Source of the DNA: Fidelibacterota bacterium
Lineage (GTDB): Bacteria > Fidelibacterota > SORT01
Reading direction: 5' to 3'
Assembly (NCBI GenBank): GCA_022571215.1
Contig: JACZYG010000002.1
Span: 54,332-118,331, forward strand
DNA: 64,000 bases
The position numbers and the translations under genes were made by a program. Numbering within the stretch: position 1 is the stretch's first letter; every line of letters begins with the position of its first letter. The notes below the pieces were generated by a model. The model ran no database searches and was not told the origin of the DNA. It saw only the letters and a program-made list of their open reading frames with translations. Positions 10,626-54,076 of this stretch are shown piece after piece.

Positions 10626-11144
10626 ATGGAACTGAGCGGAAAAAAAGTTTTGATACCTATCGGTCCGGATTATCAGGACCTGGAAGTATGGTATCCGAAA
10701 CTTCGATTGACGGAAGCGGGAGCGGATGTCACATGCGCCGGAATCGGCGACAAAACGTATTACGGTAAAAACGGTTATCCTATAGACGTGGACGTTCAGA
10801 TAGAAGAATGCGCGGCGGACGATTTTGACGCGGTTATCATACCGGGCGGATGGGCGCCGGATAAGATCCGTATGAACAAACACGCCGTAGACATCGTCAG
10901 GACTATGTATAAAGAGGGCAAGGTAGTGGCTTCTATATGCCATGCGGGATGGGTGCTCGTTTCTGCGGGCATTCTTGAAGGTAAAAAAGCCACCTCATAT
11001 ATTGCGATAAAAGATGATATGATCGCCGCGGGAGCGGATTGGTCGGACGCCGAGGTAGTCGTTGACGGGAATTTGATAACTTCACGTAAGCCGGATGACC
11101 TTCCCGCGTTTTGCAGAGAGATAATAAGGCAATTGAGCGGTTAG
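10626..11144 (+). CDS. DJ-1/PfpI family protein
   Basis: 172 aa with nucleophile-elbow Cys in ICHAGWVL and the IIPGGWAPD motif. Confidence 0.85.
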   Translation: MELSGKKVLIPIGPDYQDLEVWYPKLRLTEAGADVTCAGIGDKTYYGKNGYPIDVDVQIEECAADDFDAVIIPGGWAPDKIRMNKHAVDIVRTMYKEGKVVASICHAGWVLVSAGILEGKKATSYIAIKDDMIAAGADWSDAEVVVDGNLITSRKPDDLPAFCREIIRQLSG

Positions 11145-11164
11145 CTGTTGTGAACAGAGAGAGG

Positions 11165-12568
11165 ATGATGAAAACTCGAATTGAAAAAGATTCTATGGGT
11201 GAAATGAGAGTACCCGAAAATTCTTATTACGGAGCGCAAACTCAGCGCGCGGTGGAGAATTTTCCTATCAGCGGAATAGGTTTTTCACGGCGGTTCATTC
11301 AAGCGCTCGGAATGCTGAAAAGAGCGGCGGCGAAAGTAAACGGCGAACTCGGATTGCTCGATGCCGACAGGAAAAAGGCTATCGTCAAGGCGGCGACCGA
11401 AGTAGTTGACGGAAAGTTTGACGATCAGTTCGTTATTGACATCTTTCAGACCGGTTCAGGCACCTCGACCAATATGAACGCGAACGAAGTGATAGGAAAC
11501 AGGGCGAGCGAACTAATGGGCGGCGCTCTCGGTTCGAGGGAGCCTGTGCACCCGAACGACCATGTGAATATGTGCCAGTCATCGAACGATGTGATCCCGT
11601 CCGCTATTCATCTCGCCGCGTATACAGCTATTTATGAGGACTTGATTCCCGCGCTCGAACAACTCGAAAAGTCGTTCGCGAACAAAGCGAAGAAATTCGA
11701 TAAGATACTGAAAATAGGCAGAACCCATCTTCAGGACGCGACTCCCGTACGGCTCGGGCAGGAGTTCGGCGGTTACGCCTCTCAGGTGAGTCACGCCATA
11801 AACCGAATCAAGAACGCCTCTAACGATTTGCTTGAGCTCGCTATCGGCGGCACTGCCGTCGGCACGGGCATTAACGCTCATCCCGATTTCGGCAGAAAAG
11901 TGGCGATGAAGATCTCCCTCGACACAGGCGCGAAATTCATCGAAGCGAAAAACCATTTTGAAGCGCAAGGCTCGAAAGACGCTGTCGTCAATATCTCAGG
12001 AGTTCTTAAGTCAACCGCCGTAGGCATCTCGAAAGCGGCGAACGATATCAGGCTCATGGGAGCGGGACCGCGAACAAGCATAGGCGAAATCAATCTGCCG
12101 GCGGTAGCGCCCGGCTCATCCATTATGCCGGGAAAGGTGAATCCCGTGATGGTGGAGATGGTGATGCAGGTGACCGCTCAGATCATAGGCAACGATGCGA
12201 CGATCACGAACGCGGGGCAGGGCGGACTTCTCGAACTCAACGTCATGATGCCGGTGATGGCTCATAATCTGCTGCAATCGGTTGAGTTGCTTTCTACCGC
12301 GTCGGCGACATTCGCGACCAGATGCGTGGACGGAATTGAGGTCAACAAGGAACGCGCGGCTGAACTCGTGGAGCAGAGCCTCGCTAACGCGACACCTCTT
12401 GCGCCTCTGATCGGCTACGACAAAGCGGCTAAGATCAGCAAAGAGGCGTTCAAAAAGGGTAAGACTATCCGTCAGATACTGAAGAGCAAAAAAATCCTTT
12501 CCGACGACAAGATAAACAAAGTTTTAAATCTAATGAAACTCACAAAACCGGGTATCAGTAAGAGGTGA
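11165..12568 (+). CDS. Fumarase C / aspartate ammonia-lyase family lyase (class II fumarate hydratase or aspartase)
   Basis: GSSIMPGKVNP signature, NMCQSSND, GRTHLQDATP. The following NPVMVEMV residues look more aspartase-like, so the assignment is ambiguous. Start moved to the ATG at 11165 (MMKTRIEKDSMGE) preceded by a GAGAGG Shine-Dalgarno; the longer ORF from 11111 overlaps the PfpI gene. Confidence 0.85.
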   Translation: MMKTRIEKDSMGEMRVPENSYYGAQTQRAVENFPISGIGFSRRFIQALGMLKRAAAKVNGELGLLDADRKKAIVKAATEVVDGKFDDQFVIDIFQTGSGTSTNMNANEVIGNRASELMGGALGSREPVHPNDHVNMCQSSNDVIPSAIHLAAYTAIYEDLIPALEQLEKSFANKAKKFDKILKIGRTHLQDATPVRLGQEFGGYASQVSHAINRIKNASNDLLELAIGGTAVGTGINAHPDFGRKVAMKISLDTGAKFIEAKNHFEAQGSKDAVVNISGVLKSTAVGISKAANDIRLMGAGPRTSIGEINLPAVAPGSSIMPGKVNPVMVEMVMQVTAQIIGNDATITNAGQGGLLELNVMMPVMAHNLLQSVELLSTASATFATRCVDGIEVNKERAAELVEQSLANATPLAPLIGYDKAAKISKEAFKKGKTIRQILKSKKILSDDKINKVLNLMKLTKPGISKR

Positions 12569-12628
12569 CTGTAGTTAGGATTAAGGCTTATCCTGACTGC
12601 CACAGTAACTGGATTTAGGGATGATTAA

Positions 12629-13336
12629 ATGAATATTATTTCAAAGAAAAGACTCTCAGCTTATTCTATATTAATGATAATACTCTTAGTAATTATAGGT
12701 ATCGCAATAGTAGGATTATGGGTGATGGGGTCGAGGGCTGAAAGCATTGTTGTTGGTTCGGTAGGACTGTATTTTTGGGCTATTAAATTCATTATGAGTG
12801 AGCATTTCAAGAAGATTGACCGAAAAGTTGTTCGGCAACACCAAATACTTCTTCAGGGCATCAAAGCTGGCTACGATTTCAAACAAACGGTTATGCAAAA
12901 TATGTATACAATCACTAATGAACTTTGGAAACGTTCAATTTGGATTGCAATGAACTGGAATAGCCTCTGGCCTGGAATGGATGGTGATTTAGAATTACGG
13001 AAGGAGTTCGACGCCAATTTTGAAGAGTATTACAAATTTAGGAGCAGCAATTCGATCAATATTCCTTCACACATTTTTACAGCTGCAGGTAAACTAATTG
13101 AAGGGATCGACACATATAAAAACGGTAGGATGGTCAAAAGCGATAAATCTTTTGATGCAGAAACGCGGAGAGAAGGTCATAAGAATATGTCTAGTGGTAC
13201 CCGATTAATCAAATCTTCCATGAAAGACTTATTTCGTGCAATCCGCGAGGAATTTGGTTTAGAACGGTTGCCCGGCGATGTGCTCAATATTCCAGTTCCA
13301 GAAGAGTCTCAAAGTAAGACTGAAGATCCAGAATAA
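12629..13336 (+). CDS. Hypothetical protein with two N-terminal transmembrane helices and a ~170 aa soluble domain of unknown family
   Basis: 235 aa; hydrophobic segments AYSILMIILLVIIGIAIVGLWVMG and IVVGSVGLYFWAIKFIM; the rest matches no family I recognise; AT-rich codon usage. Confidence 0.55.
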   Translation: MNIISKKRLSAYSILMIILLVIIGIAIVGLWVMGSRAESIVVGSVGLYFWAIKFIMSEHFKKIDRKVVRQHQILLQGIKAGYDFKQTVMQNMYTITNELWKRSIWIAMNWNSLWPGMDGDLELRKEFDANFEEYYKFRSSNSINIPSHIFTAAGKLIEGIDTYKNGRMVKSDKSFDAETRREGHKNMSSGTRLIKSSMKDLFRAIREEFGLERLPGDVLNIPVPEESQSKTEDPE

Positions 13337-13381
13337 ACCAATTCCTAAGATGGGTTTTGTTCAAAAATAACGAGGAGAGAT

Positions 13382-14221
13382 ATGTTGTATCATATTAGAA
13401 TATCTCAAAAATCAAATAAGAAAAGAGGCGAAGTGAAGGTTGATTTAACAGAAGAGCAGCTTAAAGATCGTTATGTAAAGCTCTATGAAGAAGGTATGCC
13501 TTTATTTATCAACGGTAAAACTATTCCAATTGATGATATTGAGAGAATCGAGATTAGCAGAAGTGACTTAGCGTCTAAGGATCTCATCAACCATATTAAA
13601 GCTGAAGATGCTCAAAGTAGTTTTGTGTTTTTAGGCGGACCATCGTATGAATGGAGTGCAGCCGATAGAGCTGAAGATGTAACTGAAGAATACATTACAG
13701 GACCTCCCGGATCTAAAAGAATTACTAATCCAACTGAAGAGATTATCCAAACATCAATGCTAAAATCAGAAAAAAAGGTGTTTGTTGTTCATGGACATGA
13801 TCAGGAATTAAAGAATGATGTTGAAGTATTTCTGAAAAACATTGGACTCGAACCAATTGTATTGCACAGAGAGGTCGATGAAGGATTAACCCTTATAGAA
13901 AAATTTGAGCGCCACTCCGATGTAGGATATGCGTTGATTTTAATAACACCGGATGATGAAGCGTTCCCAAAAAGTGAATTAAAAAAATCTGAGAACAAAC
14001 TTAAAATTGAATTACGAGCAAGACAAAATGTGATTTTTGAATGGGGTTACTTCGTTGGAAAGATTGGTCGTTCAAACGTATGTTGTGTGTATAAAGAGGG
14101 TGTTACACTTCCATCAGATATGGCAGGATTAGTTTATAAAAAAGTAACTAAGACTATTGAAGAGATCGGTTATGAATTAATTAAAGAATTAAACAACGCT
14201 GGATTCAAGTTAGAGATTTAA
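13382..14221 (+). CDS. Protein with C-terminal TIR-like Rossmannoid domain (COG4271/PF10137-type) and N-terminal domain of unknown function
   Basis: 279 aa; C-terminal region has KKVFVVHGHD, ALILITPDDEAF and RARQNVIFEWGYFVGKIGRSNVCCV, matching the pattern I recall for the bacterial TIR-like domain found in defence effectors. GGAG-type Shine-Dalgarno 45 bp after the upstream gene; AT-rich. Confidence 0.6.
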   Translation: MLYHIRISQKSNKKRGEVKVDLTEEQLKDRYVKLYEEGMPLFINGKTIPIDDIERIEISRSDLASKDLINHIKAEDAQSSFVFLGGPSYEWSAADRAEDVTEEYITGPPGSKRITNPTEEIIQTSMLKSEKKVFVVHGHDQELKNDVEVFLKNIGLEPIVLHREVDEGLTLIEKFERHSDVGYALILITPDDEAFPKSELKKSENKLKIELRARQNVIFEWGYFVGKIGRSNVCCVYKEGVTLPSDMAGLVYKKVTKTIEEIGYELIKELNNAGFKLEI

Positions 14222-14485
14222 CTGCGATTTTATAATTATTTGTTACTATTGATTTTGTGCATACAAAAAAATATGATTTCTTGATGTAGTAGCAACCGAT
14301 TATCTTATTTTAATACTTTGACTTTCTCTCCTAAATCGAATTGCAAATACCCATATCACAACTCCATAAACAGAAATTCCCATAATTTCCCTTGCCAATT
14401 AGATGGAGCCTAAGTATATTCAATTAAGACAAAAGTTGTCGTAATTAGATAAGTCAGATAATAACACTGACTTAAATGAACTGTA

Positions 14486-14893
14486 TTGATTGGAAAATTG
14501 ACAGAAATTGAGCGTCTGGAACTGATAAAAGGACTTGAAGAACACAACACGGGCAAGTACTTTGCCTGTCACGAGACATTGGAAGATATTTGGATGGATA
14601 AAGGGGGAGATTTGAGGCGATTCCTACAGGGATTGATACATGTGGCGGTCGGTTTCTATCATCTGAGAGATTCAAACTACGTCGGCGCGTACCGTCAACT
14701 CGAAAAGGCTAATCGGAAGCTATCGGATTATGCCACTGTCGAGGTCGGTATAAACCTTCCCAAGTTGCTGGAATCAATAAAAGTCTGGTTGGAGAATTTG
14801 CGGTTTCTTCTTGACAATCCCGACTCCGACAAGGACTTCGGCATCTTCCCAAAATTTGATTATAACGCTGAAAAGATCTTAGCGCTGACATAA
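14486..14893 (+). CDS. DUF309 domain protein
   Basis: 135 aa; CHETLEDIW...LQGLIHVAVGFYHL matches the DUF309 signature; precedes the suf operon. Confidence 0.65.
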   Translation: MIGKLTEIERLELIKGLEEHNTGKYFACHETLEDIWMDKGGDLRRFLQGLIHVAVGFYHLRDSNYVGAYRQLEKANRKLSDYATVEVGINLPKLLESIKVWLENLRFLLDNPDSDKDFGIFPKFDYNAEKILALT

Positions 14894-32153: not shown

Positions 32154-32234
32154 CACACCCCGCCCTGCGGGCACCCCTCTTTTTAGAGGGGAACTTACAT
32201 CCCATCTTCGATGGGATATGTGCGAGTCAGGATT
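32154..32234 (+). repeat. Composite repeat: degenerate double-hairpin module (GCCC/GGGC and CCCCTCT/AGAGGGG) plus ATCCCATC/GATGGGAT hairpin plus conserved TGTGCGAGTCAGGATT box
   Basis: The 16-nt box at 32219-32234 is identical to 53931-53946; the module architecture matches the other copies. Confidence 0.5.
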
Positions 32235-42709: not shown

Positions 42710-43753
42710 TTGACTGAACTAATCAACATACTTTTAGAGGAAGAAAATGTCCTTTTCTTATTGAGGGGCGGTTTCAGGATAATTCTGATTTTGCTGATTG
42801 CAAAAATAGCCTATAGTCTGATAAATAAAAGATTCCTGGAACGGCTTAATCGAGCGCAGAAAACATCAGGTGCAAGCCGCGAAACCGATAAAAGCCTTAC
42901 GCTGTTACCTATCTTCCAAAATATTCTGAAAATAGGTATCTGGTCTATAGCGTGGATCCTGGTTCTCGGAGAATTAGGAATAAATACCACCGCCTTGATA
43001 GCAGGCATCGGAATGCTCGGAATTGCTCTCGGTTTGGCAGCACAGTCGATGATAAAGGATCTTATAGCCGGATTCCTGCTTATTCTCGAAAATTTGATAT
43101 TGGTAGGTGATTCGATAGTTGTCGGAAATATTTCAGGCAAAGTTGAGCAGGTTGGAATCAGGTACACTAAAATTCGATTGTTCTCCGGTGAATTACGGAT
43201 AGTCCCAAACAGTGAACTGTCTAATTTCGGTAATAAGAATAGAGGGTACATGAGAGTGATAGTTGATGTAGGACTGGCTTATGAACAGGACCTGGAGAAA
43301 GCTTTATTGGTCATGAAGGAAGTTGCTTCATTGTGGGCAAGAGACAATTCTGAGATCATCATAGAATATCCATCGGTCCAAGCGATAACAGAATTTGGTG
43401 ACAGCGCGCTGTTAGCAAGAATTGTCGCTACCGTAAAACCGGGCGAGCAGGGGAATGCGGAAAGAACAATTAGAAGTCTCCTAAAGCAAAAATTTGATGA
43501 ACGGAATGTCGATATGCCCTTTCCGAGAAGGCATCTGTATCTTCATACACAAGATTCACAGGATTTCAATATTAATGTAGAAAATCTTGATATTCTTCCA
43601 GAGCCTGGTTCAAAGGAAGAACTTGAAAATCCCTCACTGACGGGGATGGTCTTTGAGAGGGAGGTAAAGAAAATGTCAGGAGCGATGGATAAGCTAAGTA
43701 ATATGTTTAATAATAAAGATTCACCTAAAGAAGACGAAGATAAAAAAGATTGA
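42710..43753 (+). CDS. mscS: Mechanosensitive ion channel MscS family protein
   Basis: 347 aa; pore-lining TM3 signature IAGIGMLGIALGLAAQSMIKDLIAGF and beta-domain GDSIVVGNISGKVEQVGIRYTKIR. Confidence 0.85.
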   Translation: MTELINILLEEENVLFLLRGGFRIILILLIAKIAYSLINKRFLERLNRAQKTSGASRETDKSLTLLPIFQNILKIGIWSIAWILVLGELGINTTALIAGIGMLGIALGLAAQSMIKDLIAGFLLILENLILVGDSIVVGNISGKVEQVGIRYTKIRLFSGELRIVPNSELSNFGNKNRGYMRVIVDVGLAYEQDLEKALLVMKEVASLWARDNSEIIIEYPSVQAITEFGDSALLARIVATVKPGEQGNAERTIRSLLKQKFDERNVDMPFPRRHLYLHTQDSQDFNINVENLDILPEPGSKEELENPSLTGMVFEREVKKMSGAMDKLSNMFNNKDSPKEDEDKKD

Positions 43754-43827
43754 GGGGTATAGATAAAATGTTTGTAAAATCAATAAAACTACTATATATT
43801 GTACTATCAAGATAAAAATGGGTTGAT

Positions 43828-44259
43828 GTGGTAGTCAATTTAACAGAAACTCTCGTTATCAAGAGTAATGTTAATGAGCTTGCTAAGGTAGCAACAATTA
43901 CCGAAGAAATTTGTGAACGTTGTGGGTTGATAGAAGATGAGATAGATGATATTGCAATAGCCGTGACCGAGGCAGTTAATAATGCGATAAAACACGGTAA
44001 CAAGGAAGATTCTACCAAATCTATTGAAATAGTCTTCCAAATTGAAACTGAAAGAATTAAAATACGTATAAAGGATGAAGGGAAAGGATTCCAGTTAGAA
44101 AAAGTAAAGGATCCGCGTAAAAATGAAAACCTTCTAAAAGACGATGGCAGAGGAATTCTTATTATGAAGACTCTGATGGACGAAGTCAAAGTATTGTCGG
44201 GAACTGAAGGAAACGTATTGCAGCTGGTAAAAAACATTAGCAGGAATGGTGGAAATTGA
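43828..44259 (+). CDS. Anti-sigma regulatory factor-like GHKL ATPase / serine kinase (RsbW/SpoIIAB-like)
   Basis: 143 aa; N-box region AVTEAVNNAIKHG and G-box DEGKGF. Confidence 0.7.
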   Translation: MVVNLTETLVIKSNVNELAKVATITEEICERCGLIEDEIDDIAIAVTEAVNNAIKHGNKEDSTKSIEIVFQIETERIKIRIKDEGKGFQLEKVKDPRKNENLLKDDGRGILIMKTLMDEVKVLSGTEGNVLQLVKNISRNGGN

Positions 44260-53894: not shown

Positions 53895-53962
53895 CCGGCT
53901 GCGAGGCTTTCCCTTAAGGGTAGAGAATCGTGTGCGAGTCAGGATTCATCCTGACCGCAAGA
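53895..53962 (+). repeat. Composite repeat: degenerate CGAGGCTTTCCCTTAAGGG module plus conserved TGTGCGAGTCAGGATT box with GTCAGGA-ttca-TCCTGAC hairpin
   Basis: The 16-nt box at 53931-53946 is identical to 32219-32234; the upstream part resembles CGAGGCTTCCCCTCCTT at 25169-25185. Confidence 0.5.
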
Positions 53963-54076
53963 GTATGTATTATTGGCATCGGGGCAAGTCCTGACTGCAC
54001 GGAATCCGCTCAATTGCAAGTTCGCTATGGCTTTAGTATATTCAAGCCTATTCCAATTTTAGAATAGAGGAGAGAT

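Follow-up and report, generated by a model that had tools for sequence, protein, structure and literature searches.

A strain-variable islet between fumC and the suf genes of a deep-sea Marinimicrobia population and its candidate TIR-domain defence gene

Introduction

Is the short AT-rich stretch that separates the fumarase gene fumC from the suf genes of an uncultured deep-sea Marinimicrobia (SAR406) bacterium foreign DNA, and what might its two genes do? The stretch occupies positions 12569–14485 of the window analysed here (the whole 64,000 nucleotides taken from contig JACZYG010000002.1), and its genes, referred to below as g1 and g2, lie on the same strand 45 bp apart, with fumC on one side and DUF309-sufCBD on the other. 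A preliminary description, made by eye, took the stretch for a horizontally acquired islet of ~1.9 kb whose cargo was of unknown or defence-like function. Chromosomal defence hotspots and flexible genomic islets between core genes have been reported in E. coli, Pseudomonas, Vibrio and marine bacteria. Here we report that the fumC–suf intergenic region is variable among strains of one species, and we consider it probable (roughly 0.75) that it is a strain-variable defence islet in which g2 encodes a self-contained sensor–NADase abortive-infection protein and g1 an accessory or independent membrane component, with cargo being turned over by recombination in the flanks and by insertions.

Results

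Conspecific contigs carry different cargo between fumC and suf

The left flank of the slot is the class II fumarase gene fumC (11111–12568, + strand; Pfam Lyase_1, 5e-100, and FumaraseC_C) and the right flank is the DUF309 gene (14486–14893, + strand; Pfam DUF309, 1.3e-21), the first of the suf cluster. We sampled the contigs that encode exactly the DUF309 protein of the window (100% identical; n = 13), and alignment of the DNA upstream of this gene revealed five unrelated sequence classes. Allele A, which consists of g1 and g2, was present in the window and in contigs L087, L088 and L004, allele B (a 323-aa orphan on the + strand) in L090 and L092, and allele C (a minus-strand SF1 helicase fragment; Pfam UvrD-helicase, 4e-24; PADLOC GajB, 3e-22) in L089, L093 and L094, while alleles D and E were represented by one further sequence each, in L091 and L095. 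All five converged on one right junction at window positions ~14358–14374, downstream of which the suf flank was 99.1–99.6% identical to the window over >6 kb (blastn); given this identity, the contigs that carry the slot were considered conspecific. Alleles A, B and C each recurred in independent assemblies, and the ERZ272673xx–ERZ272674xx assemblies jointly contained alleles A, C and E. The fumC–suf intergenic region is thus a strain-variable slot, in which the same core flanks enclose different cargo in conspecific strains. Known defence-like cargo was recognised in allele A (a member of the PDC-S35 family) and allele C (the GajB/UvrD-like helicase fragment); allele B had no match, and alleles D and E were too short for their content to be read.

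Both junctions were spanned by L090, an allele B contig whose match to the window ends at the fumC stop (12566) and resumes at 14370. Its fumC 3′ end (L090 1–386 against window 12181–12566) was 92.2% identical to the window, as opposed to ~99% on the suf side, and was also not of the type found in Candidatus Marinimicrobia bacterium MT.SAG.3 (87%), the nearest species representative for fumC (91% amino acid identity). This asymmetry between the flanks suggests an imported recombination tract from a more distant lineage, which would place a breakpoint upstream of window position 12181. The cargo of this contig (L090 446–1417) encodes a soluble protein of 323 aa, for which there was no Pfam, PADLOC or plasmid match. 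Kinship of this protein with g1 was considered and rejected, as BLASTP gave 33 bits and a five-member g1 profile 1.4 bits, compared to 3.5–4.2 bits for shuffled controls. An apparent deletion of the DJ-1 gene and the fumC 5′ end in L087 proved to be a run of Ns that bridges a gap in the scaffold. No match to an exact 30-mer from the right junction was present in JGI metagenome contigs.

A small hairpin repeat, read from the sequence as GTTAGGAT-loop-ATCCTGAC followed by TGCCACAG (12574–12605, + strand), lies at the left boundary of the islet, and TCCTGACTGCCACAG was present in all allele A and allele B contigs. The hairpin and TGCCACAG are situated to the left of cargo A, whereas in L090 they are to the right of cargo B and continuous with the conserved flank; therefore at least two insertion points exist within the same short intergenic region. 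Hairpins of the form GTCAGGA-loop-TCCTGAC, often followed by TGC(C)AC(A/G)G AATCC, were dispersed in intergenic DNA, with copies at window positions 12574–12605, 53938–53967, 53983–54008 and about 32218–32232, at L090 1480–1509 and at L097 9–38. The copies show compensatory changes in the stem; one copy sits at the islet boundary, and in L097 another precedes the g1–g2 pair, at the left end of the contig. The repeat may be a repetitive extragenic palindromic (REP)-like element.

The nearest species representative differs at the same position. In MT.SAG.3 the aconitase, DJ-1/PfpI and fumC genes are syntenic with the window. Downstream of fumC (L007 9460–16700) come one Yip1 and two DUF4440 genes, and beyond these a block of low GC content (27–37%) that encodes a 605-aa DUF2254-like membrane protein, an HNH endonuclease and a 202-aa protein of the phage integrase family; g1, g2, DUF309 and suf genes were all absent within 8 kb. 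Since MT.SAG.3 has a different island there, the 3′ side of fumC is an insertion site between species too. With unrelated sequences in the same position in conspecific contigs, and neither gene in the nearest species representative, the proposed horizontal acquisition was supported, and the pair is not a conserved core feature of this position in relatives. A more diverged contig, L097, matched window 12671–14438 with a nucleotide identity of 79%; the match takes in the conserved right flank, and the left side differed. Relative to L097, the ratio of nonsynonymous to synonymous substitution rates (dN/dS) was 0.24 for g1 and 0.20 for g2, and because these values reflect purifying selection both are functional genes.

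Composition and boundaries of the islet

The region 12569–14485 had a GC content of 35.3%, compared to 43.6% for the window, and was the lowest-GC 1917-bp stretch in it (0.08th percentile; sampled every 50 bp), which confirmed the AT-rich islet noted by eye. A 300-bp GC profile fell from 0.54–0.57 at the end of fumC to 0.29–0.40 across 12500–14600 and rose to 0.44–0.49 in the suf genes. The abrupt shift described at the end of fumC is therefore a real step, but it is partly exaggerated because fumC is itself unusually GC-rich: its GC content at third codon positions (GC3) of 61% (z +2.7) was the maximum among the 55 open reading frames (ORFs) of the window, over which all per-gene GC and GC3 z-scores were computed. 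Similarly, the claim that both islet genes are compositionally shifted held for g2 (GC 34.5%, z −2.3; GC3 26.2%, z −3.0, the window minimum), which falls outside the distribution of the other genes, and not for g1 (GC 38.0%, z −1.4; GC3 36.6%, z −1.3), which is in its low tail; g2 alone is a true compositional outlier. The islet did not stand out by synonymous-codon likelihood computed against the remaining window sequence (g2 z +1.6). Since the common codons of this genome are themselves AT-ending, GC3 and not codon likelihood is the informative measure here.

The islet as carried by allele A comprises g1, g2 and a 136-bp non-coding tail and extends from 12569, immediately after the fumC stop, to about 14357, the right junction being shared by the five sequences. 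The right end had been placed at 14485, about 128 bp too far. Although the 264-bp spacer at 14222–14485 is AT-rich as described, its last ~115–128 bp (about 14358–14485, + strand) were conserved in every allele, and an 11-contig alignment, the blastn junctions and a promoter scan assigned them to the core DNA upstream of DUF309-suf. The best site in that scan was a promoter-like TTGCCA-17-TATATT at 14392–14420 (+ strand).

We also looked for signs of a mobile element. No tRNA was found in the whole window, an Rfam scan gave no match, no integrase was present among the islet ORFs, and flanking direct repeats were limited to short ones at chance level, in agreement with the preliminary description. 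A candidate terminal inverted repeat (12607–12619/14330–14342; 11 of 13 positions complementary) was attributed to chance, as ten comparable pairs occurred within a 2.4-kb region. Cargo A carries no mobility genes.

The g2 protein joins an N-terminal domain to a Cap12-type TIR domain

The g2 gene (13382–14221, + strand) encodes a protein of 279 aa that NCBI labels only as a 'nucleotide-binding protein'. It matched the PADLOC family PDC-S35 over its full length (PDLC05007, 3.7e-69; protein 1–278 on profile 1–273/278), as did four further PDC-S35 models at 4e-65 to 9e-42, and its residues 132–256 (13775–14149, + strand) matched PF10137, the CAP12/Pycsar TIR domain, on profile positions 1–118/119 (1.7e-35; 122.1 bits against a gathering score of 24.7). 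For this gene, these two matches back the earlier guess of defence-like cargo. The NCBIfam Cap12 equivalog scored 37 bits against a cut-off of 450. A total of 2670 homologues of g2 (275–282 aa) were found at E ≤ 1e-5 across many phyla, with named sources including Flavobacterium, Lutibacter, Ulvibacter, Aerophobetes, Margulisiibacteriota and Marinobacterium; among the best 120 of these, nearly all were 273–291 aa long and aligned over their full length.

An AlphaFold2 model (67-sequence alignment; mean predicted local distance difference test score 85) showed two domains predicted with confidence and, between them, a disordered linker (residues 115–127). The closest Foldseek matches of the TIR domain were the TIR-STING structures 7UN8 and 9LMQ (E 7e-7 to 5e-5), followed by TIR-APAZ of the short prokaryotic Argonaute system SPARTA and other TIRs. 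In profile alignments the invariant motif of the g2 family, R-a-R-Q-N-V-I-F-E-f-G, aligned with R-D-N-V-V-F-E-F-G of Cap12. In SfSTING, E84 is catalytic, R78 and N80 contact the substrate, and D110 from the opposite TIR completes the site (PMC9402430). Residues R214, N216, E220 and D246 of g2 fell on R78, N80, E84 and D110 of SfSTING, respectively, in the profile alignment to 7un8 and 9lmq; the first three were invariant and D246 was ≥90% conserved in 67 g2 homologues, and the codon of the predicted catalytic E220 lies at 14039–14041 (+ strand). This retention of the active-site residues supports an NADase completed across a TIR dimer, and we infer that g2 is an active NADase with its site formed on TIR–TIR assembly.

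The N-terminal domain (residues 1–114; 13382–13723, + strand) has a small α/β fold and is a putative sensor or regulatory module. A profile search with this domain recovered 992 representative clusters at E ≤ 0.001. In 131 of the best matches the partner domains were PF10137 TIR (52), TIR_2 (8), TIR (5), DpnII-MboI restriction endonuclease (4) and Hypoth_Ymh (4), with AbiJ_NTD4, PNP_UDP_1, DUF4145 and others as single cases. Because a constant N-terminal module is joined to interchangeable toxic C-terminal modules, the TIR domain of g2 appears to occupy the effector position; this is the usual design of sensor–effector immunity proteins. Pfam matches of the domain to Fumerase_C (E 8e-4) and Ubiquitin_5 (E 4e-3) were below threshold and were discarded, the former having no relation to the neighbouring class II fumarase. 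A contig that seemed to encode a natural fusion of the N-terminal domain to an AAA ATPase (P0115/L106) was not used as evidence. This 1447-bp contig (ERZ24945578 NODE_41979, coverage 1.9×) is 97.9% identical to window 12835–13831, and early within the TIR domain its sequence becomes that of an FtsH/Cdc48-like AAA ATPase; it is probably a chimera of a low-coverage assembly, or else a real recombinant.

The genes next to g2 homologues differed among contigs L098, L101, L103 and L114; they were often defence genes, and none was an obligatory partner. They included PDC-M34A/B (DUF5343 + HEPN_Swt1) in L098, a transposase and DUF6144 in L101, and genes of unknown function in L103. The family is mobile: full-length relatives of g2 were found on a 6.7-kb Acinetobacter plasmid and in ~10 prophage-like contigs of IMG/VR.

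The g1 family is found in Marinimicrobia defence neighbourhoods

The g1 gene (12629–13336, + strand) encodes a 235-aa membrane protein. Hydropathy analysis indicated a clear transmembrane helix in the N-terminal region and a second, probable one there, with ~175 aa of soluble sequence at the C-terminal end. The 235-aa start was favoured over a 203-aa call because the first 32 codons are conserved. There was no match in Pfam, PADLOC or NCBIfam. A search with the single sequence recovered g1 itself and two relatives (67–69% identity), one of which adjoins an 83%-identical g2 on L097, and a profile search added two more distant homologues (44% and 49% identity), at least the first of them from a Marinimicrobia metagenome-assembled genome. 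These searches, over 5.8 billion clusters, gave five homologues in all, and by them the family is confined to Marinimicrobia.

The distant homologues were situated in dense defence neighbourhoods of other Marinimicrobia. In L107 (1–12831) the g1 homologue is placed between a Type I restriction-modification system and a metallo-β-lactamase (MBL)-fold gene of the LmuA/RTasMBL-like kind that overlaps it, with PDC-S11 (DUF4268) and an EVE-McrB-like gene beyond, and in L110 (1–4265) it follows an MIT_C PLD-like gene and PDC-S18 (NucS-like + DUF5655) and precedes genes for a 95-aa Zn-ribbon protein and a DpdF-like helicase. The genes beside members of the family are accordingly the PDC-S35 TIR gene in the window, the MBL-fold LmuA-like gene in L107, and the Zn-ribbon and DpdF-like helicase genes in L110. 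Given these neighbours, g1 is best described as lineage-restricted and associated with defence islands, and not as an obligatory partner of TIR genes.

Other features of the window

If fumC begins at the TTG at 11111, its first 34 nt (11111–11144) overlap the DJ-1/PfpI gene; the NCBI call in the sister contig L003 is 466 aa, and the start position is uncertain. A 170-aa ORF on the − strand at 43725–44237, with a very low GC3 (28%), showed the window's most atypical codon choice (z −3.9); it lies between + strand genes, overlaps the end of an MscS-like gene and is probably not a real gene.

Discussion

Alternative explanations

Could the two genes form an obligate pair of the Thoeris kind, in which the TIR protein makes an NAD-derived signal and g1 is a membrane-breaching effector? 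Their common strand and 45-bp spacing, their retention as a unit in L097 at 79% nucleotide identity with both under purifying selection, and the frequent pairing of signalling TIRs with effectors that span the membrane (bioRxiv 10.64898/2025.12.03.692087) would all fit such a pair. The distributions of the two families do not: g1 has five homologues, all in Marinimicrobia, compared to 2670 of g2 across phyla, no g1-like or conserved membrane gene stands beside the g2 homologues in L098, L101 and L103, and the distant g1 homologues adjoin MBL-fold or Zn-ribbon and helicase genes and no TIR gene. Moreover, the fusions of the N-terminal domain to restriction endonuclease and HEPN-like domains put the TIR in the effector position, the TIR of g2 is closest to effector-type Cap12 TIRs, and PADLOC models PDC-S35 as a single gene. 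We therefore regard an obligate pair as unlikely, and favour a g2 protein that acts by itself within a strain-variable defence islet.

The origin of the stretch can also be read differently. If it were what is left of an element once integrated at a specific site (a prophage, satellite or integrative island, decayed and now without its integrase), this would be in keeping with the phage-integrase-family and HNH genes in the MT.SAG.3 island after fumC, with the relatives of g2 in prophage-like contigs and with the hairpin repeat at the islet boundary. Yet the window contains no integrase, tRNA or direct or terminal inverted repeats beyond chance, the junctions are fuzzy (14358–14374) with no fixed attachment-site (att) core, cargo A and cargo B lie on opposite sides of the hairpin, and the alleles are just 1–2 kb long, all of which makes this origin improbable. 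Vertical inheritance of DNA with gene-specific low GC, g2 being a housekeeping nucleotide-binding protein tied to tricarboxylic acid (TCA) cycle or Fe-S genes, is largely refuted by the unrelated genes that conspecific contigs carry in the place of the pair. It is also at odds with the absence of both genes from MT.SAG.3, the scatter of g2 relatives over unrelated phyla, plasmids and prophages, the GC3 of g2 as the lowest of 55 ORFs, and the defence rather than TCA or suf genes beside g2 homologues. This explanation is very improbable, even though ordinary genes of the window overlap g1 in GC content, AT-rich DNA also makes up the conserved suf promoter region, the same pair with the same right flank occurs in the diverged L097, and the NCBI name of g2 is that of a nucleotide-binding protein.

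Several observations weigh against the strain-variable defence islet itself. Alleles D and E could be read over 115–150 bp only, and for allele C a helicase fragment was visible but no partner gene. An empty site, with fumC directly beside DUF309, was not recovered among the contigs, so that the case for insertion is an indirect one, made from the alternative alleles. The GC content of g1 lies within the range of ordinary window genes (those for a cytochrome c assembly protein, MscS, deoxynucleoside kinase (dNK) and LolA), and the synonymous divergence (dS) of g1 and g2 from L097, 0.45–0.86, is similar to that of core genes from MT.SAG.3; because of this comparable divergence, allele A is considered old and not a recent arrival. 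The name PDC-S35 was not found in the literature searched, in which a cold-seep study tested other PDC families and not this one, and the family is a computational candidate for defence. Searches with the N-terminal domain returned no structural or sequence relative of known function, and its putative sensing role is read from the architecture of the protein.

Proposed model and relation to known systems

We propose that the fumC–suf slot in this Marinimicrobia (SAR406) population changes its content rapidly, so that the cargo, mostly of a defence-like kind, would differ from strain to strain within one species. The N-terminal domain of g2 (~114 aa) would sense an infection cue, upon which the Cap12-type TIR domains would assemble, each active site being completed across the dimer interface as in TIR-STING; the assembled TIRs would then hydrolyse NAD+ and the infection would be aborted. 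In this model g1 would either assist as a membrane partner or be a defence-island gene in its own right. Two processes would exchange the cargo: homologous recombination through the flanks, which are conserved, and independent insertions into one intergenic region of ~170 bp.

Compared to known systems, g2 conforms in sequence to PADLOC PDC-S35 (PADLOC-DB v2), a candidate single-gene defence that is itself a computational proposal, and has the same length, the same two-domain architecture and likewise no conserved partner. With Cap12/TIR-STING (SfSTING, 7UN8, 9LMQ) it shares the PF10137 TIR subfamily and the active-site residues, but the domain order is reversed, with the TIR C-terminal in g2, and in place of the STING domain there is a 114-aa fold that has no characterised relative. 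The TIR of the Pycsar (pyrimidine cyclase system for antiphage resistance) effector PycTIR (PDB 8JSJ) is also of the PF10137 type and gave weak profile matches (PADLOC, 1.6e-06; PDB, 0.005), but g2 has no cyclic-nucleotide-binding domain and no adjacent pyrimidine cyclase. More generally, neither a CD-NTase gene of the cyclic-oligonucleotide-based antiphage signalling system (CBASS) nor a pyrimidine cyclase gene adjoins g2, and since g2 is without a STING or cyclic nucleotide monophosphate (cNMP)-binding domain and without a cyclase gene nearby, it is not a CBASS or Pycsar effector.

In mode of action, g2 may be compared to SpbK of Bacillus subtilis, reportedly a single-protein TIR abortive-infection gene. 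Both are one-gene systems of ~270 aa with a TIR domain; the fold match (PDB 9PHB) was weaker, at rank 23, the TIR subfamilies differ, and the non-TIR parts, compared by fold match only, are unrelated in sequence. In Thoeris systems with membrane effectors (type II and newer types; bioRxiv 10.64898/2025.12.03.692087) a TIR gene adjoins a membrane-protein gene as it does here, but the g1–g2 partnership is not conserved outside close relatives and g1 has no Macro, SLOG or SLATT match.

At the level of the locus, the absence of an integrase, a tRNA target and flanking direct repeats distinguishes the islet from an integrative mobile element. It resembles the defence hotspots of other bacteria in its fixed core flanks, its alternative cargo, defence-like in alleles A and C, and its short alleles without mobility genes. 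It differs from them in its setting, namely uncultured deep-sea Marinimicrobia known here from metagenome contigs only, and in alleles of 1–2 kb between central-metabolism and Fe-S assembly genes.

Both g2 and the slot therefore belong to kinds already known, and the findings on the islet do not overturn current views; the new ground is the N-terminal domain and the g1 family. What they add is a nucleotide-level view of a tiny slot in which several alternative and probably defence-related cargoes coexist within an uncultured SAR406 population of the deep sea, together with a testable mechanism for PDC-S35, that of a Cap12-type NADase with a full active site and a modular N-terminal driver. The 114-aa N-terminal domain, with its 992 representative clusters, and the g1 membrane family are modules that merit study. 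A further and tentative reading, which we hold to be rather doubtful, takes the two jointly: the N-terminal domain might be a new, widespread infection-sensing module common to TIR, restriction-endonuclease and HEPN-like effectors, and the g1 family a new Marinimicrobia-specific membrane component of defence with interchangeable enzymatic partners. If this were true, the pairing of the g1 family with varied enzymes would constitute a new modular class of membrane-coupled defence.

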